NCBI GenBank assembly: GCA_035362335.1
Contig: DAOSDL010000009.1
Span: 208-64,207 of the forward strand
Length of the DNA stretch: 64,000 nt
DNA from: Bacteroidota bacterium
GTDB lineage: Bacteria > Bacteroidota > Ignavibacteria > SZUA-365
Reading direction: 5' to 3'
Made by a program: the position numbers and the translations under genes. Below the pieces are notes generated by a model, which was not told the origin of the DNA, did not search any database, and was given only the letters and a program-made list of their open reading frames with translations. Positions within the stretch are counted from its first letter, which is position 1. Each line of letters starts with the position of its first letter. Of this stretch, positions 850 to 63,222 are shown one piece after another.

Positions 850-1201
850 CCGGATTTCGTCATTTCAGCACCCGTGACACGGGAGGAAGCACAATTTCCG
901 CCTCGCTGCAGAAAGCTCATTGATTCGCGAAACGAGAACAACTCCCTCTCGTCACGTTGCGTCTCTGCTTCTCTGCGACGTTGCGTTCCATTCTTCTGAA
1001 GTCAGAAGGGAATGCAACGAAAAGATGCCAAGGCGCAATGACAGAAAGTAATGGCTATTCTCACGAGCCCTGTCGTTTTGTGAAATAGACGCCTACGCCC
1101 TGATATCGCTATTGCAGCACCCAGATCACAAGCGGAGCCCCCGTAAGTCATTGAAAACAATGATTCACATTTGCAATCCTGAAAAGCGTGGCGAAATCAG
1201 G
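850..1201. repeat. MITE-like element copy A (~350 bp, with ~90-bp internal insertion/partial duplication). Termini CCGGATTTCGTCA...GCGAAATCAGG.
   Basis: Near-identical to 2369-2624 over ~250 bp. Terminal inverted repeats are CCTGATTTCGCCA / TGGCGAAATCAGG. Contains stem-loop CATTCTTCTGAagTCAGAAGGGAATG. Confidence 0.6.
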
Positions 1202-1245
1202 AATATCGGCACGGGATGCTCGCGTCTGGTCTTGGACTTGGTCAG

Positions 1246-2360
1246 GGCTATTCACTGAATATGTCGACCGGAACAGTACGACCTCCATGACGGGATCAAT
1301 TTCGCGTGAGCGAAACCGATGACGTCGGCGCGGAGGCCAAGGATCGGGATTTGGCTATTCAGTGAATATGCCAGCTGATGCCGCTGGTAAGGGCCGAGGT
1401 TCCGGGCTTGGCTATTCAGTGAACATGCCAGCTGATGCCGCTGGCGAGGGTCGAGGTCCTGGGTTTGGCTATTCAGTGAATATGCCAGCTGATGCCGCTG
1501 GCGAGAGCCGAGATCCCGGGCTTGGCTATTCAGTGAACAACCCACGCCCTGAGCGGAAAGGCGGAGCGGGCGGGCCAGGATTAGGCTATTCACTGAATGA
1601 CCCACGCTCGGCGCGGAAAGACGGAGCGGGCGACGGGGATTTGGCTATTCAGTGAACATGCCAGCCGATGCCGCTGGCGAGGGTCGAGGTCCCGGGCCTG
1701 GCTATTCAGTGAACAACCCACGCCCTGAGCGGAAAGGCGGAGCGGGCGGGCCAGGATTTGGCTATTCAGTGAACATGCCAGCCGATGCCGCTGGTAAGGG
1801 TCGAGGTCCCGGGCTTGGCTATTCAGTGAACATGCCAGCCGATGCCGCTGGCGAAGGTCGATGTCCCGAGCTTGGCTATTCAGTGAACAACCCACGCCCT
1901 GAGCGGAAGGACGGAGCGGGCGGGCCAGGATTTGGCTATTCACTGAATGACCCACGCTCGGCGCGGAAGGCGGAGCTGTCGGGCCAGGATTTGGCTATTC
2001 ACTGAATGACCCACGCTCGGCGCGGAAGGCGGAGCTGTCGGCGGGGATTTGGCTATTCAGTGAATATGCCAGCCGATGCCGCTGGCGAGGGTCGAGGTCC
2101 CGGGCTTGGCTATTCAGTGAACAACCCACGCTCAGCGCGGAAAGGCGGAGCGGGCGGGCCAGGATTTGGCTATTCAGTGAACATGCCAGCCGATGCCGCT
2201 GGCGAGGGCCGAGGTCCCGGGCTTGGCTATTCAGTGAACAACCCACGCCCTGAGCGGAAGGCGGAGCGGGCGGCGGGGATTTGGCTATTCAGTGAATATG
2301 TCGGATGGGGATACTCGCGCCTGATCTCGGATTCGGACTTGGCTATTCACTGAATATGTC
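1246..2360. repeat. Tandem array 1: ~19 copies of a 56-60-bp unit with conserved 22-bp core GGNTTGGCTATTCA(G/C)TGAA(C/T)A and recurrent GC-rich ~36-bp 'spacers'
   Basis: Core occurrences at ~1246, 1351, 1408, 1464 ... 2281, 2341. Spacers fall into 3 families. Overlapping ORFs on both strands are frame-broken, so the array is non-coding. Confidence 0.85.
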
Positions 2361-2368
2361 TGGCCGAA

Positions 2369-2624
2369 CCTGATTTCGCCATTGCAGCACCCGAGACACG
2401 GGAGGAAGCACAATTTCCTCCTCGCAGCAGAAAGCTCATTGATTCTCGAAACGAGAACAACTCCCTCGCGTCACGTTGCGTCTCTGCTTCTCTGCGACGT
2501 TGCGTTCCATTCTTCTGAAATCAGAAGGGAATGCGACGAAACGACGCCAAGGCGCAATGACGGAAATAAGTCATTGATAACAATGATTCACATTGGCAAT
2601 CCCGAAAATCGTGGTGAAGTCAGG
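2369..2624. repeat. MITE-like element copy B (256 bp) with 13-bp terminal inverted repeats
   Basis: Starts CCTGATTTCGCCATTGCAGCACCCG and ends GTGGTGAAGTCAGG (reverse complement of the start). Direct-orientation duplicate of 850-1201. Confidence 0.6.
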
Positions 2625-3012
2625 CCACGGCGTCCACCACGGCGCGTAGCGTTTCCTCGACTTCGTCGGGAATGTCGCCGAGTCCCGCGTCGGGCATGAT
2701 GGCATTCATGGCCGAGGGACGCATGAGCTGCACCATGGTATGCTCGCCATCGGCGTATACCACAATGCGACACGGCAGCATCATGCCCACCGGCTTGAAG
2801 GCGCTGATGGCCTGAAAGGCGTAACGTGCGTTACACACCTCGATGATGCTGTAGGAGGGAATGTCGAAACCCTTGTCCCTGAGTGTGGCCTGCACGTCAT
2901 GCACGTGCAGTGTGCGGAAACCGCGCTCGAGAGCCGCGTCCTGCACCGCATTCACCACATCCGCAAAGGGCTTGGAAGAGGTCTTGCTGTATTCGAGTTG
3001 CGAAAGATCCAT
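2620..3012 (-). CDS. DUF302-family protein
   Basis: 130 aa with the size and pattern of DUF302 proteins. The stop codon lies inside the terminal repeat of MITE copy B. Confidence 0.6.
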   Translation of the reverse strand: MDLSQLEYSKTSSKPFADVVNAVQDAALERGFRTLHVHDVQATLRDKGFDIPSYSIIEVCNARYAFQAISAFKPVGMMLPCRIVVYADGEHTMVQLMRPSAMNAIMPDAGLGDIPDEVEETLRAVVDAVA

Positions 3013-3113
3013 GTCGTACTCCGTTCATCGTTCCATTCAACGGACATCGTATCGTGTGCCGGCCGATGTCGCCTGCGTTATGCATGTCGGATGCGCGGAG
3101 TGCGCGGGGAGAT

Positions 3114-3401
3114 TCAGTGCTCGTCGGCAACGCCGAGAGCTGCGAGGAGTGATTTGCGCGCGTCTTCAGGAAAGCAGGGCGACGCCGCCCGGTACAGACC
3201 GATCATTTTGTCCATGGAGTCGCAATAGGTACTGCAATCCGGACAGGCGTCGAGGTGTTTCTTCAATTCGCGACAACGCTCGGAGTTTTCGTCCTCACCA
3301 AAGTGCCCGCAAATGTAGTCGACCACTTCCTGGCAATTGGCAAAATGCGTATGCATCGTTCTATCCATCCTGCTGTTCATCAAATACGGGTGAGAGTTCA
3401 T
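3114..3401 (-). CDS. Anti-sigma factor, zf-HC2 type (true start likely internal, around 3356-3380)
   Basis: ANCQEVVDYICGHFGEDE...HLDACPDC zinc-finger anti-sigma signature. Immediately downstream of, and overlapping, the ECF sigma gene. Confidence 0.6.
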   Translation of the reverse strand: MNSHPYLMNSRMDRTMHTHFANCQEVVDYICGHFGEDENSERCRELKKHLDACPDCSTYCDSMDKMIGLYRAASPCFPEDARKSLLAALGVADEH

Positions 3402-3942
3402 TGCGTAAAAACGCCCGGGCGCGGTGCAGACGCGATTTCACGGCAGGCACGCTGAGATTAGTGATGCTGCTCACTTCCTCCGTCGACAGGCCCTCGATGT
3501 CCCGCAGGACGAAAATCACCTTGTACTCGGGAGCGAGTTTGTCTATGGCCGCGTCGAGATGTTGTTTGAGATCGGCGCGCTCCACCGCCGCCTCGGGATC
3601 GTGATCCCAATGATCGACGGCGATATCCGGGTAGTTGCCTTCGTCGTCGTCGAGCGAGACGTGGCGACGCGATTTCTCGCTGCGGGCCAGCATCAGGCAG
3701 TGATTGGACACGATGGTGTACAACCAGGTGCTGAATTTCGAGCGATTGTCGAATTGCTTCAATTTCTTGAGCACACTCATGAAGGTTTCCTGCGTGGTGT
3801 GCTCGGCCTTGTCCTGATTGCGGCAGATGTTGTACGAGAAACGAAAGATCACCGGCGCGTACTCGTCCACCAGTTGCCGTATCGCTCGTGCGTCTCCTTG
3901 CTTGGCTTTCTCGATGACTTCGACTTCGTCTTCAGCGCTCAT
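3361..3942 (-). CDS. ECF-family RNA polymerase sigma-70 factor
   Basis: Region 2 and region 4 motifs (..YAPVIFRFSYNICRNQDKAEHTTQETF.., ..LSTEEVSSITNLSVPAVKSRLHRAR..). Confidence 0.85.
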   Translation of the reverse strand: MSAEDEVEVIEKAKQGDARAIRQLVDEYAPVIFRFSYNICRNQDKAEHTTQETFMSVLKKLKQFDNRSKFSTWLYTIVSNHCLMLARSEKSRRHVSLDDDEGNYPDIAVDHWDHDPEAAVERADLKQHLDAAIDKLAPEYKVIFVLRDIEGLSTEEVSSITNLSVPAVKSRLHRARAFLRNELSPVFDEQQDG

Positions 3943-4032
3943 ACATGTGATGCCCGTGAGTGGGAAATGATTCGAATGAGAAACATACGGAATTCCCCGC
4001 TGCGGAGGTACGCGAATCCTCGTGCCTCGCGA

Positions 4033-4749
4033 TCATTCCAGCAACCATGCCGCCTCGCGCAGCAAACGCCGCTGCGTCCGATACTCCGGGCAATGCCGTT
4101 CCACCAGCGCCCAGAATCGTCGGGAGTGATTCAGTTCTACCATGTGCGCAAGTTCATGCAGCAGCACATAGTCGCTGAGCGACTCGGGAAGGCAGACGAG
4201 CAGGGCATTGAGACTGATGCTTCTCTGCGCGGAACAACTCCCCCATTTCGTCGTCTGTTTGCGCACGGTCACGCGCGTCGGTTGTCTGGAAAAATTCTCC
4301 GCCAGCAACATGATGCGCCGTGTGAGATACCAGCGCGCGTATTTGCGCAGCCATTGCTCGAAAATGGAGCGGACCACCGCCTCCTCGTCGTCAAGCCCTG
4401 TCGGCAGGTCGATCAAAAAGTCCCTTCCCTCCAAGCGCAAGCGGGCCTGGGCGGAATGCCATTGCCGCACAGTGATGCGATGCGGTACGCCGTGCAAAGG
4501 AAACTCGTCACCGTCGCGATAGCGTAGTGTACGCTGACTCCGCGCCTGTTCCTCGAATTCGCGCAGCTTACCGGCGATCCACGCCGCTTTTTCCCGCACC
4601 AACGCATGCATGGCGGCTTCGGGACATCCGCGAGGCGCGGAGACACGCACGCCGGTACGCGCGGACACGGTGATGCGGATGTTTTTATTCTTCCGCGTCT
4701 TCAGTACGCGATACGCGATGTCGACATCCCCGTGGCGAATACTGAACAC
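4033..4749 (-). CDS. YgjP/DUF45-like zinc metallopeptidase (M48/WLM superfamily)
   Basis: HELAHMVELNHSRRFW (HExxH...H) near the C-terminus. ~240 aa. Confidence 0.65.
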   Translation of the reverse strand: MFSIRHGDVDIAYRVLKTRKNKNIRITVSARTGVRVSAPRGCPEAAMHALVREKAAWIAGKLREFEEQARSQRTLRYRDGDEFPLHGVPHRITVRQWHSAQARLRLEGRDFLIDLPTGLDDEEAVVRSIFEQWLRKYARWYLTRRIMLLAENFSRQPTRVTVRKQTTKWGSCSAQRSISLNALLVCLPESLSDYVLLHELAHMVELNHSRRFWALVERHCPEYRTQRRLLREAAWLLE

Positions 4750-4758
4750 CGCTGGGCC

Positions 4759-5385
4759 TCAGCGCTTGGTGCATACGAGCAAACCGTCGCGCAGAGGGAG
4801 AATCATCGCATCGCAGGCGGGATCGGCAAAGGCCATGCGATTCAATTCCACCACGCCCCGTGTTGAAGCGCTGTCGTCGCCTTCGAGCATGCGCCCGCTC
4901 CACAGCGCATTGTCGAATATCAGCAAGCCGCCGCGACGCACGCGGGGAAGCGCCGCGCGGTAGGCGTCCGGATACTCGTGCTTGTCGATGTCGCAGAAGA
5001 TCATATCGAACATACCCTCCACTGTCGAGAATACCGTCAGCGCATCGCCCACGTGCATGGTGATGTTCTCTTCCACGCCGGCGCGCGCGAAGGCCTCGCG
5101 CGCCCGTCGGGCATTCTCCGCATCGCCATCGGTGCAGATGATGCGCGCATCGGCGTGCAGGGCCGCGGCAACATGCAAGGCCGAGTACCCGAAGCCCGAC
5201 CCCAGCTCCATGACCCGGCGCGCGTCGATCAGCGTTGCCAGGCGCGCGATAGCCACTCCGGCGAGCGGGCCGATGATGGGGAAGCGATGTTCCGCCGCCC
5301 AGGCCTCCATTTCCCGCAGCACTTCGGAGCGCTGCGGCAGCAGTTCCAGCATGTAGTGTTCGATTCGCTCATCGACAATGCGCAT
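4759..5385 (-). CDS. Class I SAM-dependent O-methyltransferase (caffeoyl-CoA OMT-like, family 3)
   Basis: VMELGSGFGYSALHVA SAM-binding motif. ~208 aa, typical family-3 OMT size. Confidence 0.75.
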   Translation of the reverse strand: MRIVDERIEHYMLELLPQRSEVLREMEAWAAEHRFPIIGPLAGVAIARLATLIDARRVMELGSGFGYSALHVAAALHADARIICTDGDAENARRAREAFARAGVEENITMHVGDALTVFSTVEGMFDMIFCDIDKHEYPDAYRAALPRVRRGGLLIFDNALWSGRMLEGDDSASTRGVVELNRMAFADPACDAMILPLRDGLLVCTKR

Positions 5386-5559
5386 CGCTTGTCCTTTCCA
5401 TTTGCCTGTGCCGTGAAAATAAAACGCCCCTCCACCGCTGACCGCGCTTCGCCGTCCCCCGGTGCAAGTAGTGAGGAATGGTTCTCATGCGACGGTCCCT
5501 TTCACGACGATGGCAGGGGCAGGGGGACGACGAATTTTCACTCTAACAGCGCTATGCCT

Positions 5560-8500
5560 CTATTTGGCCAGCACCATCGAAATCATGCGTACATACGATC
5601 CGCTCCGCAGGCGCGTGATATACACGCCGCTCGGCAAGGCGCTGCCGTCGAAATGTACACGATGGGTTCCTTCTTGCAGTGGTCCGTCATGCAGCACTCG
5701 TACGACGCGGCCATGCATATCCAACACTTCCAGCACGCCCGGCATTCCCGTCAAGGCATCGGAAACCACGTACTCGATCACCGTGACCGGGTTGAAGGGA
5801 TTCGGTGCATTTTGTCGGAGGAACAGGTCGCTTTTCAACGGCTCGATGCAATCACCCGACACGGTGATCAGCCCGTCGCTGTACACCACGGCGATGCCCG
5901 GTCCGAAGTCCGGAGTACCCGCGAAGAGCACCGGGTAACGGAACACCCCGAAGGCGCCGTCCCTGCCCTTTTGCGGCAACAGCAGGCATCGCAGCGAGAA
6001 CAACACGCCGTCATCAACAATGGGCGTACCCGAAGCGCCATCGATTGTCACACCGGTTGCGGTTTCGTTCATGGCCAACGGCCAACCCGCGGCGAGCGCG
6101 CCTTCCTTCTTCACTTCCAGAATGCGGACGGCGGCGGGGTCGACGTCGATGCGCATGGACATGCGCCGCAGCAGCGCGCGTCGGGGATTGCTGAATCGCA
6201 CCGGCACTGTCACCTCGCGTCCCATCATTCCGACGATATCCTGCGGCATGCTCAACAGCACCACCAGCAAACGCGACTGCACGAGTATGGACTGCGCGCA
6301 TTCCACTGAGCTGGTCTGATCGCTATTCACGATACAGCGAATCGTACTCAGTACATCGTCATCGCCGCCCGAGGGAACGCAGGTGAAGGAGAGCACGCCC
6401 GTGGCGCCCGGCTGCAAGTCCACACCGAGCACTTTGACCGGGGTTTCTCCGGTATTCAACGTGATATTCGCCGGCAGCATGAGCATGCCCGAAATACCTG
6501 TCAACGTGCGATTGCCATTGTTGTGAATACGCACCGTTACCGTAAATGGCGAGGGCACGTACGTATCGCTGCCGGCATCGTAACGGATGGTGTCGGGAAT
6601 GTCGCAATCGATAGCCAGCGAGGCGCTGTCCACGATCGGCGGGTGATGGAGCAGAATATCGCTGCCGCATTGCCGAGACGAGGCGGCGTCGGCGGTGACG
6701 GTGACGACGGGACGCAGTATTGTGCTGGCGCTTTGCGGCGCCGCCCGCAACAGCCATCCGATGGTGGCTATTTCACCGGGAGCGAGATCCACGCCCAGTG
6801 GCTTGGTGTAGCTTTCGCCCGCTTCCACCGATGCGATGGAGGGAAGCGAGAGCGTCGCGCGGATACCGCGCAGCGTGGTCGATCCGGTATTTTGAATTTC
6901 CACGGTGAATGAAAACGGTGCGGGGCGATAGCCCTGCGAGGCGCCAATGAACCAGAGTGTATCGGGCGCATCACAGCGTACGACAAAACCCGTGGGCTGC
7001 GGCGGAGCCGGCATCAGCGTCACCGACGCGGTACACTGCTGCAAATCGCCGCCAGCATAGGCGCGGACACGGAATATACGCGACCGCGGTACTGTGGCGG
7101 TATCGACCAGCATGCGCACATGCCATATCGCATTCGCGGAGGTACCGGCAGCGATGTTCCGCAGCACGATATCCAATTGCTCGCCGCTTTCGAGCTGTGC
7201 CCCTTGCGGCAGTTGGAGCGTTGCCACAACGGAGTCCAGCATGACGGGAGAAGGATTGCCAATCCGCGCCGACACCGTCAGCAGCGGATACAATCCAGAT
7301 TGCTCATCCACGCGCAGTGTATCCATATCGAGCGCGCATTGCACATCGAAGCTCGCCTCTTCCAGCGCGGGAATGCGCACCATGGTACAACAACGCTCGG
7401 GCGCGAGCCCGCGGGCGGCGCTCTCTATACAGACTGCTACAGAATCGACCTGCATGCCGCGTTGTACAACTGCTTTCCATGTGGCGGTGAACTGCGCTCC
7501 CGGAGCCAGAACGCCGACATCGATCACGGGAAGGGGCGTCTCGGCCGTAAGCCGGAGACGCTGCGGCACTTCGATACGCAGATTGCCCTGATAAGCGGAA
7601 GCGCTGCCCACATTGCGCAGCACCGCGCTGATCACCACGGTGTCGTCCTCGCCAGCCTGTTTGAGCAGTTCGCAACTCAGGCGCAACTGCGGCATGCGGG
7701 CGGCGGGGATGTGAATTTCCACCGGGCAGGGTGCGGTCTGTTGCAGAGTTTTTCCCTTGGCCTTCACCTGCACGAGCACCGTATCCATGCGCGCAACCGA
7801 GCGCGGCGTGGCGCGCAGCCACCAGCGCGCATTGCCCGTCTCGCCCACGGCGAGTGTGGATGGCAGCAGCATTTTCGCGGCCTGCTCGCCGGTGGCCATG
7901 GTCATATCGGGAGGCGGCAGGATTTCCGCGACCACCGAATCGGCGAGAGCAGTACCGATATTACGCACATCCACCGACACCAGGAAGGGCTCGGGCATGT
8001 ACCCGGCCAGCGAGTCCACGAAGTGCAGGGAGTCGGGTCCGGCACAGGCGAGTTCGAGCACGGGTCCTTTCACCGCTTCGATAAACATGCGCTTGGCACA
8101 CAAGGTCCCGCCACCGTTGGCCGCGAACACCGTGATTTTCACCGTGTCGTGCCTCGCATTGTCGCGATCGAGTACGCGCAAACGGAAGGAGCCTTCCACC
8201 GAAGCACCGGCGGCGAGAGAATCGCTCAACAATTTGAACGGTTGGTCGCTGCCGTCGATGGACAAATCCTCGCCCTGAAGCAACGCGGCGGTCACACCCT
8301 TGGCTGGAGTTGTGCCGTTGTTGGTCACACGCACGCGCACCGTCATGGGATTCGGATCGTATGCGCCGTCGATATACCGCACCGTATCCGGACCCTCCAC
8401 TGTGCAGGCGAGCGAGGGAATGGCATTGTCCACAATCACATCGAGCGGCGTGCAGCACTGCGCACCGGCAAAATTTTCGGCGGTGACATTCACGCAAATG

Positions 8501-10830
8501 GAAGAGGGCAATACCGGCTGGCCGCGCAACTCCACCACCCACATCACCACACCGCTATCGCCCGGGAGAATCACCGCACCGTTCGGAAAATCCTTCGACG
8601 CAAAATCCGACGAACCCAGTCGGGCAAAGGATGGCAACTGAATATGCGCACGCGCGCCCGTCATGTTCAGGGCCGACACGTTGCGCACCGTAGTGCTGAT
8701 AAACAGATACGCCGGATCGTAATTCCCCGAGCCGTCGTCGAAGCGCACCACGCGCGTATCTGTGCACAGCATGCGCGCACGCACAGGCGAGGCGGTAATG
8801 AACAGCTCCTGACAACATTCAGCGGTATCGCCTCCCACGGCAACCTTGATACAGAACCGCAACAGGTCCGATGTCGTACGCTCGAGCGGACGCACATACC
8901 ACAGCACGTAGCCGGAGTCGTTGCGCGTCAGCGTACCGGGTGCGACGAAGGTGTTGACCGGCGTGGTACTATCCACGACGAATCCCTGCGGCACATGAAT
9001 CCACGCCGCCACATCCCGCGCTGCGAGGTCACTGTGATTTGTCACGAGCACGCGCACGGGGAAGCGATCGGGAACGAAGGAATTCAGACTGTCACTCCAC
9101 TCGATGCGATTGATAAAATCGCATTCCACGCGGAGCTTCGGATAGGCCTTCTCCACCAGCACTTCGGTGCAGCACCGCGTGATCTGCCCGCTGTCGGGTT
9201 GCACCTCCACGCAAATGGAGAGGCGTCGCTCCCTGTCCGCCGGCAGCATGCGCAAATCGAAGGAGGCGTATTCGGTGGCACCCACCGGGAGTTCGGTGGC
9301 ACTGAGATAAATTTCGTTTGACGGTGAAATCAATTCCACGCCATCAGGGACGTCGATACGCACGCGGGTATTTTTCGCGGTAAGCACACCCGGATTGCGC
9401 ACGGTGACAGAGACGCGGAAGTATCCATTATTGTAGCGTCCCTCGTTGCGATCCCAGGTGATGCGCAAGGTGTCCTCGCACACCGCGCTGAGTTTCGGGC
9501 GTTGAAGAATGGCGACGTTGGTGGTTCGGGCCAGTAGACGGAGGCATTCCACCGTTGTTTTATCGAGGAAAAACGCCGGATACACGAAGCTGGTATCTTT
9601 CGTCAGCGTGCCGGGAGTGGAGTAGCGCAGCACCAGCAGAGTATCGCGATTTCCGCTGAGTGCAAGCGGTCCGGTAAGTTCGCAGATCACCGAATCCACC
9701 ACCCGACCAAAAATTGCAGTCATCTTCTCGGCCACATACCCTGTGGTCACAATACCCTTGTACTGCAGCGGTGCGCGTTCGAGTACTTTGAAGTTGAGAT
9801 GATTCAGCGTGGCACCCGCCGGTCCTTCGATCATCACGGGTATGCGCATCTCGCCGCCGGCATAAGCGAAGGTGGAGTCGAATGACACTTTGATGTCCGG
9901 TACCGAAGGATGATGCGGCGTACGGAAGCGTACCTCGGCGGTATCGGCCACACCACAGGCCTCGGCGATCACCCGCAACTCGCGCATCGATCCATCCGGA
10001 CAATCGGAGGTGTAATTCATGCGGCAATCGTTTGCACCGCCGGTAATCAGGGACATGATCGAAGTGAAGGCCGGCACGATATCGTCCGGATGATTGAGTT
10101 CGATGTACATGCCACCAGTTTGGTCCGCGATCATGCGCATCACATCGAGATCGGCGTTGTCGTCGACATAAGAAAGGCCGAGGCAATACACCGGAATCCC
10201 GGTACTTACTGATCGCAGAATCACGTCCTGGGCAGTAGCGATACTGTTGTTGTCTCCTCCGTCGGAGAGCAACACCACTGCCTTGATTGGATTACTCGCA
10301 TTGGCCGCCACTTCGTTGATGCCCGCGATGACGGCGTCGAACATCGTGGTGACGCCGTAGGGATAAATGTTGCGAATGGCGTCGAACAGCAGGGCGATGT
10401 TGGAGGTCATGCCCTGATGCATGGTGACGTTGTCCCCGAAACTGAAAATCGCCCCTTCGTCGCTGCCGGTTGTGTGATGCTGAAACATTTCCACAAACTT
10501 CCATGCGGCGTCGCGTATGCGAAAGATGCTGGTGCCCGCCACCGAGCCACTGCGATCCAGCACCAGAGCCACGGACATGGGTACAGTTTGCTGCGGGCAG
10601 GTCAAGGATTGCAGCGTGCGCAGTTGACCGTTTTCATAGATGCGCACAGTGAGCTGATTGCCGATGCCGACTTGCTGCCCGCCGCAAAAAGCGCGCACGT
10701 GCACATTGACGGAGGGAAAATTCTGCGTATCCACATGGAGGATGCGGACCTCATTGCCGATTTGTGCCTCGACGAGCACAGGCGGCAGGAACAGCAGGAG
10801 GAGTACGACATACGGGAGCAATCGACTCAT
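5560..10830 (-). CDS. Giant secreted adhesin-like protein: N-terminal VWA domain, ~9 DUF11/CARDB-like repeats, C-terminal T9SS sorting domain
   Basis: Signal peptide MSRLLPYVVLLLLFLPPVLVEAQ. VWA motif VALVLDRSGSV. Repeats show V(R/T)N.G...A....LP.G and end in CC/C motifs. C-terminus SGVYITRLRSGSYVRMISMVLAK. Confidence 0.8.
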   Translation of the reverse strand: MSRLLPYVVLLLLFLPPVLVEAQIGNEVRILHVDTQNFPSVNVHVRAFCGGQQVGIGNQLTVRIYENGQLRTLQSLTCPQQTVPMSVALVLDRSGSVAGTSIFRIRDAAWKFVEMFQHHTTGSDEGAIFSFGDNVTMHQGMTSNIALLFDAIRNIYPYGVTTMFDAVIAGINEVAANASNPIKAVVLLSDGGDNNSIATAQDVILRSVSTGIPVYCLGLSYVDDNADLDVMRMIADQTGGMYIELNHPDDIVPAFTSIMSLITGGANDCRMNYTSDCPDGSMRELRVIAEACGVADTAEVRFRTPHHPSVPDIKVSFDSTFAYAGGEMRIPVMIEGPAGATLNHLNFKVLERAPLQYKGIVTTGYVAEKMTAIFGRVVDSVICELTGPLALSGNRDTLLVLRYSTPGTLTKDTSFVYPAFFLDKTTVECLRLLARTTNVAILQRPKLSAVCEDTLRITWDRNEGRYNNGYFRVSVTVRNPGVLTAKNTRVRIDVPDGVELISPSNEIYLSATELPVGATEYASFDLRMLPADRERRLSICVEVQPDSGQITRCCTEVLVEKAYPKLRVECDFINRIEWSDSLNSFVPDRFPVRVLVTNHSDLAARDVAAWIHVPQGFVVDSTTPVNTFVAPGTLTRNDSGYVLWYVRPLERTTSDLLRFCIKVAVGGDTAECCQELFITASPVRARMLCTDTRVVRFDDGSGNYDPAYLFISTTVRNVSALNMTGARAHIQLPSFARLGSSDFASKDFPNGAVILPGDSGVVMWVVELRGQPVLPSSICVNVTAENFAGAQCCTPLDVIVDNAIPSLACTVEGPDTVRYIDGAYDPNPMTVRVRVTNNGTTPAKGVTAALLQGEDLSIDGSDQPFKLLSDSLAAGASVEGSFRLRVLDRDNARHDTVKITVFAANGGGTLCAKRMFIEAVKGPVLELACAGPDSLHFVDSLAGYMPEPFLVSVDVRNIGTALADSVVAEILPPPDMTMATGEQAAKMLLPSTLAVGETGNARWWLRATPRSVARMDTVLVQVKAKGKTLQQTAPCPVEIHIPAARMPQLRLSCELLKQAGEDDTVVISAVLRNVGSASAYQGNLRIEVPQRLRLTAETPLPVIDVGVLAPGAQFTATWKAVVQRGMQVDSVAVCIESAARGLAPERCCTMVRIPALEEASFDVQCALDMDTLRVDEQSGLYPLLTVSARIGNPSPVMLDSVVATLQLPQGAQLESGEQLDIVLRNIAAGTSANAIWHVRMLVDTATVPRSRIFRVRAYAGGDLQQCTASVTLMPAPPQPTGFVVRCDAPDTLWFIGASQGYRPAPFSFTVEIQNTGSTTLRGIRATLSLPSIASVEAGESYTKPLGVDLAPGEIATIGWLLRAAPQSASTILRPVVTVTADAASSRQCGSDILLHHPPIVDSASLAIDCDIPDTIRYDAGSDTYVPSPFTVTVRIHNNGNRTLTGISGMLMLPANITLNTGETPVKVLGVDLQPGATGVLSFTCVPSGGDDDVLSTIRCIVNSDQTSSVECAQSILVQSRLLVVLLSMPQDIVGMMGREVTVPVRFSNPRRALLRRMSMRIDVDPAAVRILEVKKEGALAAGWPLAMNETATGVTIDGASGTPIVDDGVLFSLRCLLLPQKGRDGAFGVFRYPVLFAGTPDFGPGIAVVYSDGLITVSGDCIEPLKSDLFLRQNAPNPFNPVTVIEYVVSDALTGMPGVLEVLDMHGRVVRVLHDGPLQEGTHRVHFDGSALPSGVYITRLRSGSYVRMISMVLAK

Positions 10831-10887
10831 ACCTTCCTCGAAGAGGTTAATCGACAACAGAATCAGGTGTACAAGGCCGGGCGTTGG

Positions 10888-12243
10888 TCAACGCTCCGGG
10901 CTTTCGTGCGTGACCTTCGGCCATTCGCGCACGCCTTCGGCATCGACGGTGGAAAGAATGAGCGCCGGATGTTCCGGAATTCCATCCGCGATACGAAACG
11001 CGGCGGTGGCGCGCTCGCGAAACGCGACGAGGCTCTCTACTGTCGACGAGCAGAGTCGACACAGTGCTTCGTCCTCAGCGACAGCATCACCGCGTTTTTT
11101 CAATACAATGATGCCCGCAGTGTGATCGACCATGTCGCTCGAACGCCGTCTGCCTGCACCGATTTCCGTCGCGATCATACCAAGCGTACGAGCGTTGATC
11201 CCTTGCACCACTCCAGATCGCGGCGCGGGCACGTCCACCATGGAGCGGGGATTCGGGTAACGGAGAGTATCCTCCACCATGGTCACATCACCACCTTGAG
11301 CGCGGACGAGTGCTAGCCAGCGTTCCCACGCAAGACCCGAACGCACGGTTTCGCGGGCAATCGCCATACCTTCCTCAACGCTTTGGGCCTTCCGTCCTTC
11401 ATGGAGCATCACTCCTGCGAGAGCGTAGGTCACCTCCATGAGATCGGGACTTGAGCGGCCTTGCAGGCAATCCACCACTTCCACTACTTCCAGCCATGAG
11501 CCGATAGCGCGGCCGAGAGGTTCGCTCATATCCGTGATCAGGGCGGTCGTGGTCAGACCGAAGTGCCCGCCGACACGGACCAGCAGACGAGCAAGCTCCT
11601 CCGCCTCTTCCCGTCGTTGCATGAAGGCGCCTTCGCCGGTTTTGACATCGAGCACCAGCGCATCCGCGCCGGTTACGATTTTCTTGCTCATGATACTCGC
11701 CGCAATGAACGGCAAAATCTCCACCGTGGCGGTCACGTCGCGTAGCGCGTACATCCTTTTGTCCAGCGGAACCAGTCCCTCGCTTTGGCCTGCGAGCACT
11801 GCACCAGTTTGATCGAGTATGCGCAGAAACTCCGATGAACCCAGTGTGGTACGGAAGCCTGGAATACTCTCCAGTTTGTCCAGTGTTCCACCGGTGTGTC
11901 CCAATGCTCGACCAGACATCATCGGCACTCGCACACCCGCCGCCGCGACGATAGGTGCCAGCAACAGCGAGGTTTTGTCCCCCACACCGCCGGTGGAGTG
12001 CTTGTCCACCTTCCGGCCCTGTACGCTTGATAAATCCAGCCGTGTACCGGAATCGATGAACAGTTGCGTAAGCAGCAACGCCTCCTGCTCGTCGGGAGGA
12101 TGGAAGTAACTGGCCATGAGAAACGCGGCCATCTGATAGTCCGCAACCTCCCCTGCCAGATATCCGGCAAAGAATTCACGCAGCTCGTCCGACGACAGTG
12201 TCAGTCCGTCACGCCGTTTTCGAATGGTTTCTTGTGGAAGCAT
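10888..12243 (-). CDS. Thymidine/pyrimidine-nucleoside phosphorylase
   Basis: KHSTGGVGDKTSL motif and glycosyltransferase family 3 architecture. 451 aa. Confidence 0.85.
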   Translation of the reverse strand: MLPQETIRKRRDGLTLSSDELREFFAGYLAGEVADYQMAAFLMASYFHPPDEQEALLLTQLFIDSGTRLDLSSVQGRKVDKHSTGGVGDKTSLLLAPIVAAAGVRVPMMSGRALGHTGGTLDKLESIPGFRTTLGSSEFLRILDQTGAVLAGQSEGLVPLDKRMYALRDVTATVEILPFIAASIMSKKIVTGADALVLDVKTGEGAFMQRREEAEELARLLVRVGGHFGLTTTALITDMSEPLGRAIGSWLEVVEVVDCLQGRSSPDLMEVTYALAGVMLHEGRKAQSVEEGMAIARETVRSGLAWERWLALVRAQGGDVTMVEDTLRYPNPRSMVDVPAPRSGVVQGINARTLGMIATEIGAGRRRSSDMVDHTAGIIVLKKRGDAVAEDEALCRLCSSTVESLVAFRERATAAFRIADGIPEHPALILSTVDAEGVREWPKVTHESPER

Positions 12244-12574
12244 CTCTCACATCGCCTATAACGTTTCATGGTAAGAAAACTCCCCTCAATATGCAATGGA
12301 CATCGTGCAGCCCGAAGCCGCCCGGTCCGCCGGGCCGCACGGCATGCCGCGAAGATTCGGTGACTCGTAATGACGATACCATCGGATGGATATCGCTCGT
12401 GAGGCCGTTCGCGCGTCATGCGCACCGCCTCGCCGTTTCACAACCACGAGGTGCGATCGACCCAGCCTTCCCCAGGTGGCAAGCCCTGAGCGCATACAGA
12501 AGTGCATTGCGGGATTCGAACGTCCTGGATATGTTGCACGTTCCATTTCACTTTCATCCATTAGTTGGGAGCTA

Positions 12575-13399
12575 ATGATGCAACTTGAGATACCCTATCG
12601 GCACGCGCGCGCGCGCGGCCACAACTACTCCGAACCCGGCACCTACTGCCTGCGACTCGAAACCGCAGGCGAAGAGGCGTTGTTCGGCGAGGACGGCGAC
12701 GGCGGGCTGCGGCTCAACGCCTTCGCGGAAATCGCCTTCGAGAAGCTCGCCCTCGCCGTGCAGCGTTACCCCTGTCTGCGCCTGGACGCAGCGCGCTTCA
12801 CGCCCGACGCGCTTGAAATCCTTGTGACCATTACCGAGTACCGCAATCACAAGGCGGAGAATCCGGAGCTGTGGGGAAATCGCCTTCGCGCGCGTCGTCT
12901 GATGACCATCCCCATGTTCGTGGGCTTTCTGAAAATGAACAGCGCCCGAGCCATCAACACCGCGCGCGGCACACGTGGACGCGCCGTGTGGAAACGGCGT
13001 TACCACGATTGCATCGTCGCGGAGGCTGGAGAAATCCAGAATATCCGCTGCGCATTCAACGCTGCGATGCAGCGTACGCAGCTCACGCGCGACAAGGCGA
13101 ATCCCTCGGTGCGCAATCTGCGCACCGTGCTGAACGAGGCCTTTGCGCTGTTCGGTGAGGATCACGCCCGGGCACCGCGGTCCGAGGCGCAGCCAACCTC
13201 CGGATTGCTCATGCTCGGCCGCGCGGTGTTCCTGCGAGACACCGTACTGAGATCGCCATCCATGGTTTCGGCATCGTCTCGAACTGGTAAGGGGAAAAAG
13301 AAGCGATCCCCCACGGTAACGGAAATGGTGGACGCCTCGCTGGCGATGCTGCACACCGTGGATCCGGAGGCGATGTTGCTATCGATGGCGCCGGGGTAG
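12575..13399 (+). CDS. IS200/IS605-like (RAYT-like) Y1-transposase-fold protein with degenerate HuH motif. Possibly domesticated.
   Basis: Aligns by eye to IS200 TnpA. GTYCLRLETAG..ALFG matches the YHIVF..AFYG strand. PDALEILVTI replaces the HuH segment (both His lost). FVGFLKMNSARAIN and AVWKRRYHDCIV match FMGYLKGKSSLMLY and FWCRGYYVDTV (catalytic-Tyr region kept). RBS GGAG lies upstream of the ATG at 12575. Confidence 0.5.
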   Translation: MMQLEIPYRHARARGHNYSEPGTYCLRLETAGEEALFGEDGDGGLRLNAFAEIAFEKLALAVQRYPCLRLDAARFTPDALEILVTITEYRNHKAENPELWGNRLRARRLMTIPMFVGFLKMNSARAINTARGTRGRAVWKRRYHDCIVAEAGEIQNIRCAFNAAMQRTQLTRDKANPSVRNLRTVLNEAFALFGEDHARAPRSEAQPTSGLLMLGRAVFLRDTVLRSPSMVSASSRTGKGKKKRSPTVTEMVDASLAMLHTVDPEAMLLSMAPG

Positions 13400-13664
13400 T
13401 GCATCAGGATATAGGACGGGATGGTCCGCGATAGGCCGTCGCATCCGCTTGCTGTAATCGATTGATTTCCGAGTGAGGTCCGAAGCGCCCCGCGGCGATT
13501 CGCGGGAGAGCTATGCGCGGAGGCGGAGGATTTGGGACGTGGGAGTGGTTTTTCCGAGGTTGTCGCGGACGTTCAGCGATTTCGGAGCTTACGGTATTGT
13601 GAAATTCGGGGAAATCGGCTGGGGGGCGGGGCGGTCGAGGGCTGAGATTGCGGGTTCGGGGTGG

Positions 13665-14270
13665 GGATTTGGCTATTCACTGAATAACCCATGCCCGGAT
13701 CGGGAGGCGGCGCGGTCGGCCCGGATTTGGCTATTCACTGAATATCTCAGCCGGGCCGGGGTGCACGGAGACCAGGGTCTGGATTTGGCTATTCACTGAA
13801 TAACCCTGGCCTTGCGACGGGAGGTGGCGCTGTCGGTCCGGATTTGGCTATTCACTGAATAACCCTGGCCTTTGGACGGGAGATGGCGCTGTCGGTCCGG
13901 ATTTGGCTATTCACTGAATAACCCTGGCCTTGGGAGGGGAGGCGGCGCGGTCGGCCCGGATTTGGCTATTCACTGAATATCTCAGCCGGGCCGGGGTGCA
14001 CGGAGACCAGGGTCTGGATTTGGCTATTCACTGAATAACCCTGGCCTTGCGACGGGAGGTGGCGCTGTCGGTCCGGATTTGGCTATTCACTGAATCACCC
14101 ACGCCCTGAGCGGAAGGCTGTGCGGTCGACCCGGATTTGGCTATTCACTCAATATCTCAGCCGGACCGGGGTGCGCGGAGACCAGGGTCTGGATTTGGCT
14201 ATTCACTGAATATGTCAGCTGGCGATGCCCGCGCCGAGTCCTGGTTCCGAGCTTGGCTATTCACTGAATC
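13665..14270. repeat. Tandem array 2: 11 copies of a 58-59-bp unit with core GGATTTGGCTATTCACTGAAT(A/C) and recurrent ~37-bp spacers
   Basis: Core starts at 13669, 13727, 13785, 13844, 13903, 13962, 14020, 14079, 14137, 14195, 14254. Spacer families recur (S2=S6~S9; S3~S4~S5~S7). Confidence 0.85.
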
Positions 14271-14315
14271 ACCCACGCCCTGAGAAGGGTCACGCCTCAC
14301 CCGCGCTTCCACGAT

Positions 14316-14360
14316 TCATCTGTGCTAATCTGTGTAAAATCTGTGCAATCTGTGGTTTTG
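14316..14360. promoter_or_regulatory. Four helically phased ATCTGTG heptamers (iteron-like putative protein-binding array)
   Basis: tcATCTGTGctaATCTGTGtaaaATCTGTGcaATCTGTGg with 9-11-bp spacing. Confidence 0.3.
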
Positions 14361-14525
14361 AAACTCTGCTGATCCGCTCCGACAGTAATCATGGCACACG
14401 CACCATGTTCATTCTCCCGGGTGTGACGAAGGAACATGAAAGACTGTGGTTCCCCCCCCGCAATCCCAACCACGGTCATTGCGCCTTTGCGGCAACGCGT
14501 CTCATTCCCCGCTGCGCTCCCGCAA

Positions 14526-56811: not shown

Positions 56812-57378
56812 ATGAACACACTCGAAGCCAACAGCATACTCCCCGCGCCGCTCGGCGGCTTTCAACATATCGCGCCGGCCGAGGCCCGCAAACGCGCAGC
56901 CCGCATTCGCCTGCTGCTCACCGACAACGATGGCGTGCTGACCGACACCGGCGTGTACTACGGTCCCGACGGCGAACTGGTGAAGCGCTACAGCATACGC
57001 GACGGCATGGGCGTCGAGCGGCTTAAGCTCATCGGCGTGGAAACCGGCATCATCACCGGCGAGAAATCGCTCAATCTCAAACGTCGCGCCGAAAAGCTCC
57101 GCCTCGCGCATCTGTACCTCGGCATCAAGGACAAGACCGCCACCATCGAGGCCATTCGCCGCGCGGCGAATTTGTCCATGGATGAAATCGCCTATATCGG
57201 CGACGATGTGAACGATCTCCGCGCCATGGATCTGATCGGCGAGCGCGGACTGACCGCGGCTCCCGCCGACGCCATGCCGCAGGTGCGCGCCATCGCCCAG
57301 TACCTCTGCGCCTGGAATGGCGGCGCGGGCGCGTTCCGCGATTTCGCCGAGGCGCTGATTACCTTGCGGGGGAGGTGA
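56812..57378 (+). CDS. HAD-family KdsC/YrbI-like phosphatase (Kdo-8-P / KDN-9-P phosphatase type)
   Basis: LLLTDNDGVLTD motif I. IGDDVNDL motif. Confidence 0.8.
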   Translation: MNTLEANSILPAPLGGFQHIAPAEARKRAARIRLLLTDNDGVLTDTGVYYGPDGELVKRYSIRDGMGVERLKLIGVETGIITGEKSLNLKRRAEKLRLAHLYLGIKDKTATIEAIRRAANLSMDEIAYIGDDVNDLRAMDLIGERGLTAAPADAMPQVRAIAQYLCAWNGGAGAFRDFAEALITLRGR

Positions 57379-57425
57379 ATCGGTAATCGTGAATCGTGAA
57401 TCGTTAATCGTTAATCGTGAAATGT
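57377..57425. repeat. Tandem octamer repeat (AATCGTKA)x6 immediately after the KdsC-like stop
   Basis: gaatcggtaatcgtgaatcgtgaatcgttaatcgttaatcgtgaaatg. Confidence 0.5.
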
Positions 57426-61950: not shown

Positions 61951-63222
61951 TTATTGAGCGAGCGGTTCTTGTATTCCATGAAATACTAGCGACACGATCC
62001 CACCAGAAATTCGTCGCATTCTGGCTAAAACAAAGACATGCCCATCTGAAATATTTATTTGCTTAAATGTCAGATAATCGTTTTCCAATCTCGCAACTTG
62101 TGTGCTTTTCATTCCTTCTACTCGGAATATCTCTCCATCTTCTGTCATGGCAAATAGGTTTGAGTATTGATCCTCAGCCATGGACACTACTGAACTGCCT
62201 TCCCTCAAATCACATATCTCGGAGATCTGGTCGTTAATTACCTGATATATACTGTTACCACCAAATATATATACACTGCCTGAACTACCAAGATAGAATC
62301 GTACATGTTCGCCATTTGATCCTAAGCGCTCATTAAGATTGATACTAAGTATCAACTTATTGAAATATTTATATACATTCCGTAAGCTTCTTCCAGTTGA
62401 CCTCTCGTAGGTTGACACAATCGCATATGTTTCGCTTCGCTCTGTGATTAGAACATCAGATATATAATGTCTCGTTCCTCCTTCGGAATATTTTGCAACG
62501 GGCATTACTACGCTCTCCCAATTAACTCCATTTGAAAGATAAATTGCACCTGAATCCGCACCTAATACGATCTCCCCTTTCGAATTTATAGCACCAGAAT
62601 AAATATGATTGTTCATCTTTACTAAGTTATCAGATCTGTTATTTGTTGCTAAAAAGCCAGTCTCAGTGAGGCTAATTCGTTCTCCTGCTAAGAAATACTC
62701 TGAATTTAATCTTCCAAACACTGAGCTCGGGCTCAGGTCGGATGTGCTCTGGTATCTTTGCTCGATCATTATTGCTCGCCAGGAAGTACCATTATATTCC
62801 CAAACATCCCCACCACGAGAAGAGCAAAAACCCGCAACCACAATCAACGACGGATCATGCCCCCAAAGCTCAGTAAGATCTGTTTGATACGTACCTTGGA
62901 AACTGAGAGTATCACACTCCCATTCCAACTTATCGAATATGCTGATTTTGGCGGTCGATTGAGAAATATCGTCGTTACACCCTCCTATCAATATTCCAAT
63001 CAGAAGACAAGTCACCTGAATAGCATGACGACTCGTTCGCGATACTTTAGTATCAAATAAACGTATTTTGTCCAAAATATATCGAACCCATCTCAACTCT
63101 CGAAGGACTTGCCGGTCAACTTCGTTGATCATATCCTGAATAGCTAAAGCGTATTCTCCGTTGATCAGCCACAGTTTCCGCGAAAAGTTCTGCTTGGACA
63201 TCTTAGACGCTCCACCCGTCAT
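61951..63222 (-). CDS. Hypothetical protein in low-GC island, possibly a lipoprotein with beta-propeller-like repeats
   Basis: Internal ..VTCLLIGILIGGCNDD.. lipobox-like segment. Repeated GxxxxIYxSxxG/W beta-strand-like motifs. ~40% GC vs ~65% surroundings. Confidence 0.4.
   Translation of the reverse strand: MTGGASKMSKQNFSRKLWLINGEYALAIQDMINEVDRQVLRELRWVRYILDKIRLFDTKVSRTSRHAIQVTCLLIGILIGGCNDDISQSTAKISIFDKLEWECDTLSFQGTYQTDLTELWGHDPSLIVVAGFCSSRGGDVWEYNGTSWRAIMIEQRYQSTSDLSPSSVFGRLNSEYFLAGERISLTETGFLATNNRSDNLVKMNNHIYSGAINSKGEIVLGADSGAIYLSNGVNWESVVMPVAKYSEGGTRHYISDVLITERSETYAIVSTYERSTGRSLRNVYKYFNKLILSINLNERLGSNGEHVRFYLGSSGSVYIFGGNSIYQVINDQISEICDLREGSSVVSMAEDQYSNLFAMTEDGEIFRVEGMKSTQVARLENDYLTFKQINISDGHVFVLARMRRISGGIVSLVFHGIQEPLAQ

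Follow-up and report, generated by a model that had tools for sequence, protein, structure and literature searches.

Repetitive extragenic palindromes (REPs) and the REP-associated tyrosine transposases (RAYTs) form the classic domesticated bacterial transposase system, and the work on them so far has assumed that the enzyme is catalytic. RAYT genes are known, and so are REPs that are tandemly reiterated together with their flanking DNA (PMC3733652). In the Y1 family, TnpA_Y1 subclass 2.4 is accompanied by 'double-foot' REPs (Quentin et al. 2018, PMC6006769); the same study, the main phylogenomic survey of the family, set aside the members without the HUH (histidine-hydrophobic-histidine) motif and the catalytic tyrosine as probably non-functional. 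Here, a periodic array is described in a 64,000-nt stretch of DNA from a Bacteroidota bacterium (assembly GCA_035362335.1, contig DAOSDL010000009.1, positions 208 to 64,207 of the forward strand), which is called the window below. Judging from the comparison with related loci, this array, array 1, is a head-to-tail tandem cluster of REP-derived units and an orphan of the array family that belongs to a lineage-specific module built on a RAYT homologue without the catalytic residues.

The core GGCTATTCASTGAA was found 35 times in the window when at most one mismatch was allowed, compared with 0.01 matches expected from dinucleotide-preserving shuffles. Array 1 contains 19 copies, all on the + strand between 1246 and 2354, where the first interval is 107 bp and the other 17 intervals are 57–60 bp; thus, the sequence-only reading of about 19 units with a near-invariant core was borne out. 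The periods given by Tandem Repeats Finder were 57 and 117, and the 117-bp super-period arises from the interior units, which carry linkers of types A, B and C. Splitting the array into units gave eight A-type, five B-type and three C-type linkers and three unique units at the two edges, which agrees with the three recurring, mutually related 'spacer' families proposed earlier. The A-type units (TGCCAGCYGATGCC..., also written TGCCAGCYGATGCCGCTGG...) are predicted by folding to form the hairpin GCCAGC..GCTGGC that had been pointed out before; this hairpin is absent from the other linker classes. The prefix of the core, GGATTT or GGGCTT, covaries with the class of the preceding linker. The near-palindrome TATTCA-S-TGAATA (S is G or C), which had been read as a general property of the core, is present, but it is complete in only six of the 19 cores of array 1, with TGAACA in ten and TGAATG in three. 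The edge units (1240–1346 and 2277–2360) are degenerate, and the A/B/C units of the interior, between these older edges, look recently expanded.

All 30 cores in the window fall in two arrays on the + strand, and the core matches on the minus strand are the palindrome read in reverse. The second array and the Y1-transposase-like gene adjoining it, as shown in Table 1, were overlooked in the sequence-only reading and are the key to identifying the element. The final two units of array 1 are 81% identical to the final two units of array 2. Neither a second copy of the gene nor a second copy of the leader was found beside array 1 or elsewhere in the window by tblastn and blastn, and array 1 is an orphan member of the array family, located 11.3 kb from array 2 on the same strand.

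Array 1 is also bracketed by a 256-nt direct repeat, 'X', whose copies are 90–93% identical. A 40-nt piece of 'X' recurs in inverted orientation at 14475–14514, directly after array 2. Several small hairpins occur within 'X', and no match to it was found in Rfam or in the related loci.

Table 1. Features of the window and arrays at loci of distant relatives (positions at each locus in its own numbering).
Feature	Locus	Positions	Strand	Description
Left copy of direct repeat 'X'	window	850–1201	+	256-nt repeat, split by a 96-nt insert at 1048–1143
Array 1	window	1240–2360	+	19 units; strictly invariant core portion TTGGCTATTCA-S-TGAA; A/B/C interior, degenerate edges
Right copy of direct repeat 'X'	window	2369–2624	+	matches the two parts of the left copy at 93% and 90% identity
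Promoter-like element TTGCGG-N17-TATGTT	window	12507–12535	+	left edge of conserved module, from an alignment of 10 paralogous upstream regions
Shine-Dalgarno sequence GGGAG	window	12567–12571	+	upstream of the 273-aa gene
Y1-like gene, 273 aa	window	12578–13399	+	~170-aa HUH-fold domain, then ~105-aa uncharacterised extension
G-rich leader	window	13400–13664	+	between gene and array 2; conserved among paralogues
Array 2	window	13665–14315	+	11 units of 58–59 bp, core GGATTTGGCTATTCACTGAATA; gene-linked
Conserved tail CCACGATTCATCTGTGCTAATCTGTGTAAAATCTGTG...	window	14306–14450	+	common to paralogous modules
Array	L116	4035–4664		31.5 × 20 bp (CGCCATGGGGTYTCATGAAT), 97% identity
Array	L118			at least 3.7 × 115 bp
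Array	L119			45-bp period
Array	L144	3730–4563		14.2 × 58 bp; single palindrome 225 nt past the stop

The 273-aa protein had no significant match in single-sequence searches of Pfam, PDB and NCBIfam, where REP_Tyr_transpos came closest at E = 0.06, and its close homologues form only 15 clusters, every one of them from metagenome bins labelled as Bacteroidota. When 1.8 billion representatives were searched with a profile, 1826 matches were obtained, of which the more distant ones are Y1 (IS200-like) transposases with the Pfam domain Y1_Tnp. When a profile of 106 sequences was used, the best solved structure was 4er8 (E. coli TnpA_REP) at E = 5.9e-5, followed by the ISDra2, IS608 and IS200 transposases. 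The AlphaFold2 (AF2) model built from the same 106 sequences has a predicted local distance difference test score (pLDDT) above 90 over most of residues 1–170, after a shallow alignment of 15 sequences had given an unusable model (pLDDT 43). The top 30 Foldseek matches of the model in the PDB are all Y1 transposases of the IS200/IS605/RAYT type. On the profile and the model, the protein is a divergent homologue of the IS200/RAYT-type transposases with the HUH-type Y1 fold.

In the window family, the column of the HUH motif, canonically MPNH-u-H, is A-L-E (TPDALEILV), and the catalytic tyrosine of the canonical IREYIAQNP (IRxYIxxNP) is replaced with A or G (IRCAFNAAM); in the deeper dead clade this column holds E, R, Q or M. 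Both motifs are missing in 25 of the 106 aligned sequences, among them the window family and almost all of the relatives closest to it, and most of these proteins are 260–330 aa long with a C-terminal extension. Outside the window family, the dead clade includes at least 17 clusters at 50% identity. Both motifs are retained in 78 more distant sequences. Given the loss of HUH and tyrosine, the window protein is predicted to be catalytically inactive. Despite this loss, the gene evolves under purifying selection: among six gene copies, the ratio of nonsynonymous to synonymous divergence (dN/dS) is 0.14–0.27 at a dS of 0.34–0.67, for the Y1 domain and the extension alike, which indicates that the gene is not a decaying pseudogene. 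For the C-terminal extension, Pfam gave no match even with the threshold relaxed to E ≤ 10, and the AF2 confidence is low there. The window protein matched none of the PADLOC defence models, and a match of P0020 at E = 0.03 was judged to be noise.

The comparative loci are all from metagenome assemblies, in which the contigs often stop within the arrays. About 15 distinct loci have a common layout, consisting of a promoter-like region, the gene, a G-rich leader of ~270 nt and an array on the same strand, which is present in every copy with sufficient flanking sequence. The array starts 272–276 nt past the stop codon in all of the 12 metagenome loci that have 300 nt or more downstream, and likewise at L109–L112, L048, L099 and L106; in the window, where the module spans 12507–14450, it starts 265 nt past the stop. 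Upstream of the gene, ~75 nt are conserved, with the hexamers TTGCGG and TATGTT and the GGGAG ribosome-binding site; the hexamers are kept among the paralogues, and the spacer between them, 17 nt in the window, is variable. The two hexamers are promoter-like in pattern, and a generic promoter scan found nothing at this element. The paralogous arrays hold 3–12 units, and several copies share a tail (91% identity over 143 nt between the window and L110, 92% over 52 nt with L048, and also in L121 and L122). The neighbouring genes differ from copy to copy, which shows that the module is dispersed. It is also multi-copy, with at least three copies per metagenome-assembled genome (MAG) and up to seven or eight per assembly; assembly OFEK01 contains seven loci, and three paralogues bear locus tags of a single MAG. 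In a scan of genome contigs with the 16-nt core, the matches listed were mostly chance single matches, and the sole informative MAG, JAMIQH01 (Bacteroidota), has at least three arrays with the same core, each after a homologous open reading frame (ORF) and a homologous spacer of ~270 nt.

Among 121 related units from 17 sources, 68 are 58 nt long and 38 are 57 or 59 nt long. The core is near-invariant across these units, while the linkers and the synonymous sites of the gene diverge; the linkers are variants of two ancient themes common to arrays and genomes. The leader lies between these extremes, with a median Jukes-Cantor distance of 0.30 among paralogues, compared with the dS of 0.34–0.67, so that it diverges roughly half as fast as the synonymous sites. 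Within it lie GGAGGATTTGGGA and, ~185 nt past the stop, a degenerate palindrome, GGTATTGTGAAAT.

The coding strand of the leaders is markedly rich in G and has numerous runs of G3–G6, in the window as well as at L113 (4830–5040) and L118 (3900–4020), and such stretches may be prone to form G-quadruplexes or R-loops; the G-richness persists across the deep clade though the sequences are unalignable. Two further observations concern individual loci. L121 (4093–4650) and L122 (4093–4270) are one locus in two assemblies, with flanks 99.7–100% identical and 10 and 3 units, respectively, which is either a real indel of seven units between identical units or an assembly collapse. L113, L114 and L115 (gene at 4001–4828 in each) are at least 99.5% identical from ~240–310 nt upstream of the dead Y1 gene, P0016, through 5 kb downstream, while their upstream neighbours are wholly different; this pattern points to a break in synteny directly upstream of the gene, or to chimerism of the assemblies.

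The palindrome type of the cores descends from REPs, as is seen in the more distant relatives. Among the dead relatives with 25–32% identity, a palindrome of the ATTCATGAAT type, with the pattern [AT]T[TA]CATG[AT]A[TA], lies 160–361 nt past the stop in all nine loci with at least 230 nt downstream. The outer arms of these palindromes differ by locus yet stay complementary, and a perfect 36-bp palindrome occurs at L142. A tandem array is also present in five of the nine loci, with periods of 20, 45, 58 or 115 bp and unrelated units. Arrays have arisen repeatedly at the same position in different lineages, which suggests either selection for several sites or local duplication promoted by the bound palindrome. 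Among the relatives that retain the catalytic motifs, the nearest, P0028 (locus L147), lies in a textbook REPtron with five GTAGGGCGGATTCATGAATCCGCCCTAC repeats, three upstream in tandem at 116–117-bp spacing and two downstream; these repeats have the related centre GATTCATGAATC and the GTAG foot, and they correspond to the 'double-foot' REP of TnpA_Y1 subclass 2.4 (PMC6006769). The palindrome variant tracks the protein clade. The REPtron of P0028 and the palindromes of the dead clade together indicate that the window core, (GGC)TATTCA-S-TGAATA(GCC), is a diverged REP that has lost the GTAG foot and gained a central base. The ancestral palindrome WTTCATGAAW does not occur in the window. Directly past the stop codon of a gene on the + strand, at 57375–57421, there is a 7-bp tandem repeat, GTGAATC/GTTAATC, of ~6.7 copies. 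Its unit is similar to TGAATC, a half-site of the ancestral REP palindrome, and no link between them was established.

The window protein is homologous to the Y1 proteins of subclass 2.4 REPtrons, the canonical relatives of which carry NH[IFV]H, WQ and YIxxNP, and the window core, like a REP, is built as a short palindrome, the stem of which has three G-C pairs at its foot. However, the window family combines the absence of HUH and tyrosine with purifying selection, its protein has the extra ~105-aa C-terminal extension, and its module is multi-copy, whereas low copy number per genome is a criterion of RAYT/TnpA_Y1 genes. In the window family, the repeats all run head-to-tail and occur on the downstream side of the gene only, separated from it by the G-rich leader at a fixed distance, and no dispersed single cores were found among the window and the fetched loci. 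In place of the 5′ GT[AG]G foot, GGATTT or GGGCTT precedes the foot of the stem. An adjoining Y1 (RAYT) gene, which is characteristic of REPs, accompanies array 2 and the paralogous arrays and is absent from the orphan array 1, and the short (20–40 bp) imperfect palindrome of REPs is seen in the best form of the core and is weakened in most units.

The arrays also resemble bacterial interspersed mosaic elements (BIMEs), where REP-type palindromes are clustered and regularly spaced, with linkers of a few recurring types. In BIMEs, however, the REPs alternate in orientation (PMC2817692), whereas the window cores all point in the same direction. The likeness to CRISPR arrays lies in the regular period of repeat and 'spacer', the leader by the array and the degenerate terminal units; the differences are that the 'spacers' here are neither unique nor derived from foreign DNA, that cas genes are absent and the linked gene is derived from a transposase, and that the leader is G-rich, whereas a CRISPR leader is AT-rich. 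The ends of IS200/IS605 elements bound by TnpA (IS608, ISDra2) are comparable in that a Y1 protein of the same fold recognises a subterminal palindrome and its 5′ flank; the window system differs from them because it has no catalytic residues, tnpB, left-end hairpin or sign of a bounded mobile element, and because its palindromes are amplified into arrays. In eukaryotes, the domesticated transposase CENP-B binds a box within the tandem units of alpha-satellite DNA. By analogy only, the window system likewise pairs a non-transposing, transposase-derived protein with tandem arrays that have one conserved short site per unit; the two proteins belong to unrelated superfamilies (pogo DDE and HUH Y1), binding is putative here, and the comparison does not extend to a centromere function.

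Linked and orphan arrays alike probably serve as multi-site binding platforms for the inactive protein. A unit consists of a core of 16–26 nt built on (GGC)TATTCA-S-TGAATA(GCC), its conserved 5′ flank and a fast-evolving, G-rich linker of ~36 nt. The dead protein would still recognise the 5′ flank and the palindrome, as Y1 transposases recognise the foot and stem of hairpins, and would bind the core without cutting it; the recognised substrate could be single-stranded DNA (ssDNA), an extruded hairpin, duplex DNA or RNA. The 5′ flank and the left arm are invariant and the right arm is looser, which fits recognition of a flank plus a palindrome better than a symmetric duplex operator. The sequence-only reading had proposed a dimeric protein-binding site; the palindromic core does look like the functional part and is plausibly bound by protein. 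Slippage or unequal recombination would lengthen and shorten the arrays, and the bound palindromes may promote these events. As candidate outputs, the module could regulate itself or be controlled at its 3′ end, DNA could be organised locally, or active Y1 enzymes could be titrated.

Several observations weigh against binding platforms of this kind. The best form of the palindrome, GGCTATTCA-S-TGAATAGCC, folds as ssDNA at −6.4 kcal/mol (z = −3.95), compared with −13.7 kcal/mol for the REP and −16.8 kcal/mol for the palindrome of L142. The right arm is degraded in 13 of the 19 cores of array 1, and the array-1 variants tested reach only −2.1 to −2.5 kcal/mol with z ~0; because most of these cores have no ssDNA hairpin advantage over shuffles, hairpin recognition is doubtful for array 1. 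The cores lack the canonical GT[AG]G foot, and array 1 lacks a gene beside it; there is no array at L113, and the units of the array at L144 have no palindrome. The array sizes come from short-read metagenome assemblies and may reflect collapsed repeats, and the uniformity of the cores could result from recent duplication or gene conversion, not selection. The evidence for the putative interaction between protein and core consists of genomic linkage.

A degenerate or orphan CRISPR array would explain the regular direct repeats of ~22 nt with intervening segments of ~36 nt. However, these segments show homology among themselves, both inside an array and from one array to the other, and the arrays matched no phages, plasmids or viral contigs, a comparison that the sequence-only reading had called for in rejecting CRISPR. 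Its statement that cas genes are absent agrees with the Pfam scans of the plausible long ORFs of the window and of the called genes of L108 (housekeeping genes only), in which none was found and ~9 ORFs had no Pfam match; the gene actually linked to the arrays encodes the Y1-transposase homologue. The CRISPR reading is refuted as far as the tools used allow, with practically no probability left to it. A protein-coding tandem repeat is just as improbable: ORFs of 83–121 aa cross the array on both strands, and units of 57 and 60 nt, contrary to what had been stated for all unit lengths, are multiples of three, but the units of 58 and 59 nt interrupt every frame and the 58-nt length dominates, so that the coding reading is refuted by the unit lengths and the earlier judgement of a non-coding array stands. 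A more serious alternative, though still an unlikely one, is a passive satellite, in which relic REPs beside a decayed REPtron expanded without function by slippage or unequal crossing-over and the protein was kept for a reason independent of the array. Such a satellite would accommodate the linkers, which evolve freely and without structure, the partly degraded cores of array 1 and the unit number that may vary between the near-identical L121 and L122, and REPs are known to be reiterated in tandem along with the DNA around them (PMC3733652), as is also seen beside the active relative. Against it, the core is far better kept than the leader, the linkers or the synonymous sites (paralogue dS up to 0.67), the start of the array is fixed in every paralogue, and arrays or palindromes recur at the same place in the relatives of 25–32% identity with unrelated unit sequences.

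The arrays might instead act at the RNA level, where gene, leader and array would be co-transcribed and the units would serve as a stabiliser in the 3′ untranslated region, as an array of processed small RNAs, or as hairpins bound by the RNA recognition motif (RRM)-like Y1 domain. This agrees with the position of the arrays, always downstream on the strand of the gene, with promoter-like hexamers only upstream of the gene, with the prediction of no terminator in the leader between stop and array, and with a leader better conserved than synonymous sites. However, Rfam 15 gave no match at the gathering score, and E-value searches gave only chance-level matches to miRNAs; array segments fold no better than shuffles (z-scores −0.3 to −1.0). 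No consensus structure was found in the linkers (alifold energy ~0 for 46 B-type units on both strands) or in the leader, the covariation term being zero or unfavourable (+0.98 for the leader). The AU-rich stem of 5 bp with a 3-nt loop would make a weak RNA hairpin, and the orphan array 1 has no leader or promoter module. An RNA-level role is accordingly given a low probability, below that of the passive satellite. On the same three grounds (Rfam, folding like shuffles, no covariation support), the structured-RNA reading was dropped, and with it the word 'structured' in the earlier description of the element as an uncharacterised structured satellite; 'uncharacterised' does not hold either, as the element belongs to the world of REPs and RAYTs. 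Y1 transposases act as dimers with active sites in trans, as established for IS608, and dead subunits could in this way poison active ones. The cores could then be live REPs mobilised by an intact paralogue in the same genome, with the dead copies acting as regulators or dominant-negative inhibitors, and active relatives with the same palindrome centre do exist. However, no active Y1 gene was found in the window or in the fetched loci of the same assemblies, and no isolated cores, which a mobilised REP is expected to leave, were found outside the arrays in either, which makes this the least probable of the readings that place the element among REPs.

Other features of the window are as follows. 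Arrays 1 and 2, in the same orientation, bracket an 11.3-kb block (2361–13664) with genes for a DUF302 protein, an extracytoplasmic function (ECF) sigma factor, YgjP, an O-methyltransferase, a 1765-aa protein with VWA and CARDB domains and a type IX secretion system (T9SS) tail, a pyrimidine-nucleoside phosphorylase and the Y1-like protein; this block could be deleted or duplicated if the two arrays recombined. The GC content is 0.40 at 62001–63000, compared with ~0.60 elsewhere, and the region, covered by an ORF at 61951–63222 on the minus strand (423 aa, no Pfam match), may be foreign DNA.

Beyond the binding platforms considered above, the promoter, the dead-RAYT gene, the G-rich leader and the array could together be a selected, self-contained system, a prokaryotic case in which a Y1 transposase without nuclease activity was domesticated along with a REP-derived satellite of its own; we regard this only as a tentative proposal, with the chances rather against it. 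The protein would decorate the palindrome arrays, perhaps on the G-rich strand displaced in transcription or replication, and could govern DNA or RNA transactions in the vicinity or neutralise Y1 elements that are active, and orphan arrays such as array 1 would be platforms acting in trans. The literature searched contained no description of RAYT homologues without HUH and tyrosine that are accompanied by arrays. Tandemly reiterated REPs and RAYT genes are known in themselves; what is apparently undescribed is a selected, multi-copy clade of such homologues with a C-terminal extension, each with a leader and a head-to-tail array.

The dead clade is unusual because it is under purifying selection, multi-copy and invariably linked to a REP-derived palindrome or tandem array. 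The arrays mimic CRISPRs and break short-read assemblies, and recognising them avoids false CRISPR calls. If the protein binds the arrays, an HUH transposase would have given rise to a DNA-binding protein without nuclease activity, paired with bacterial satellite arrays of a new class, and the system would offer a tractable model for the origin of binding-site arrays beside their binding protein.

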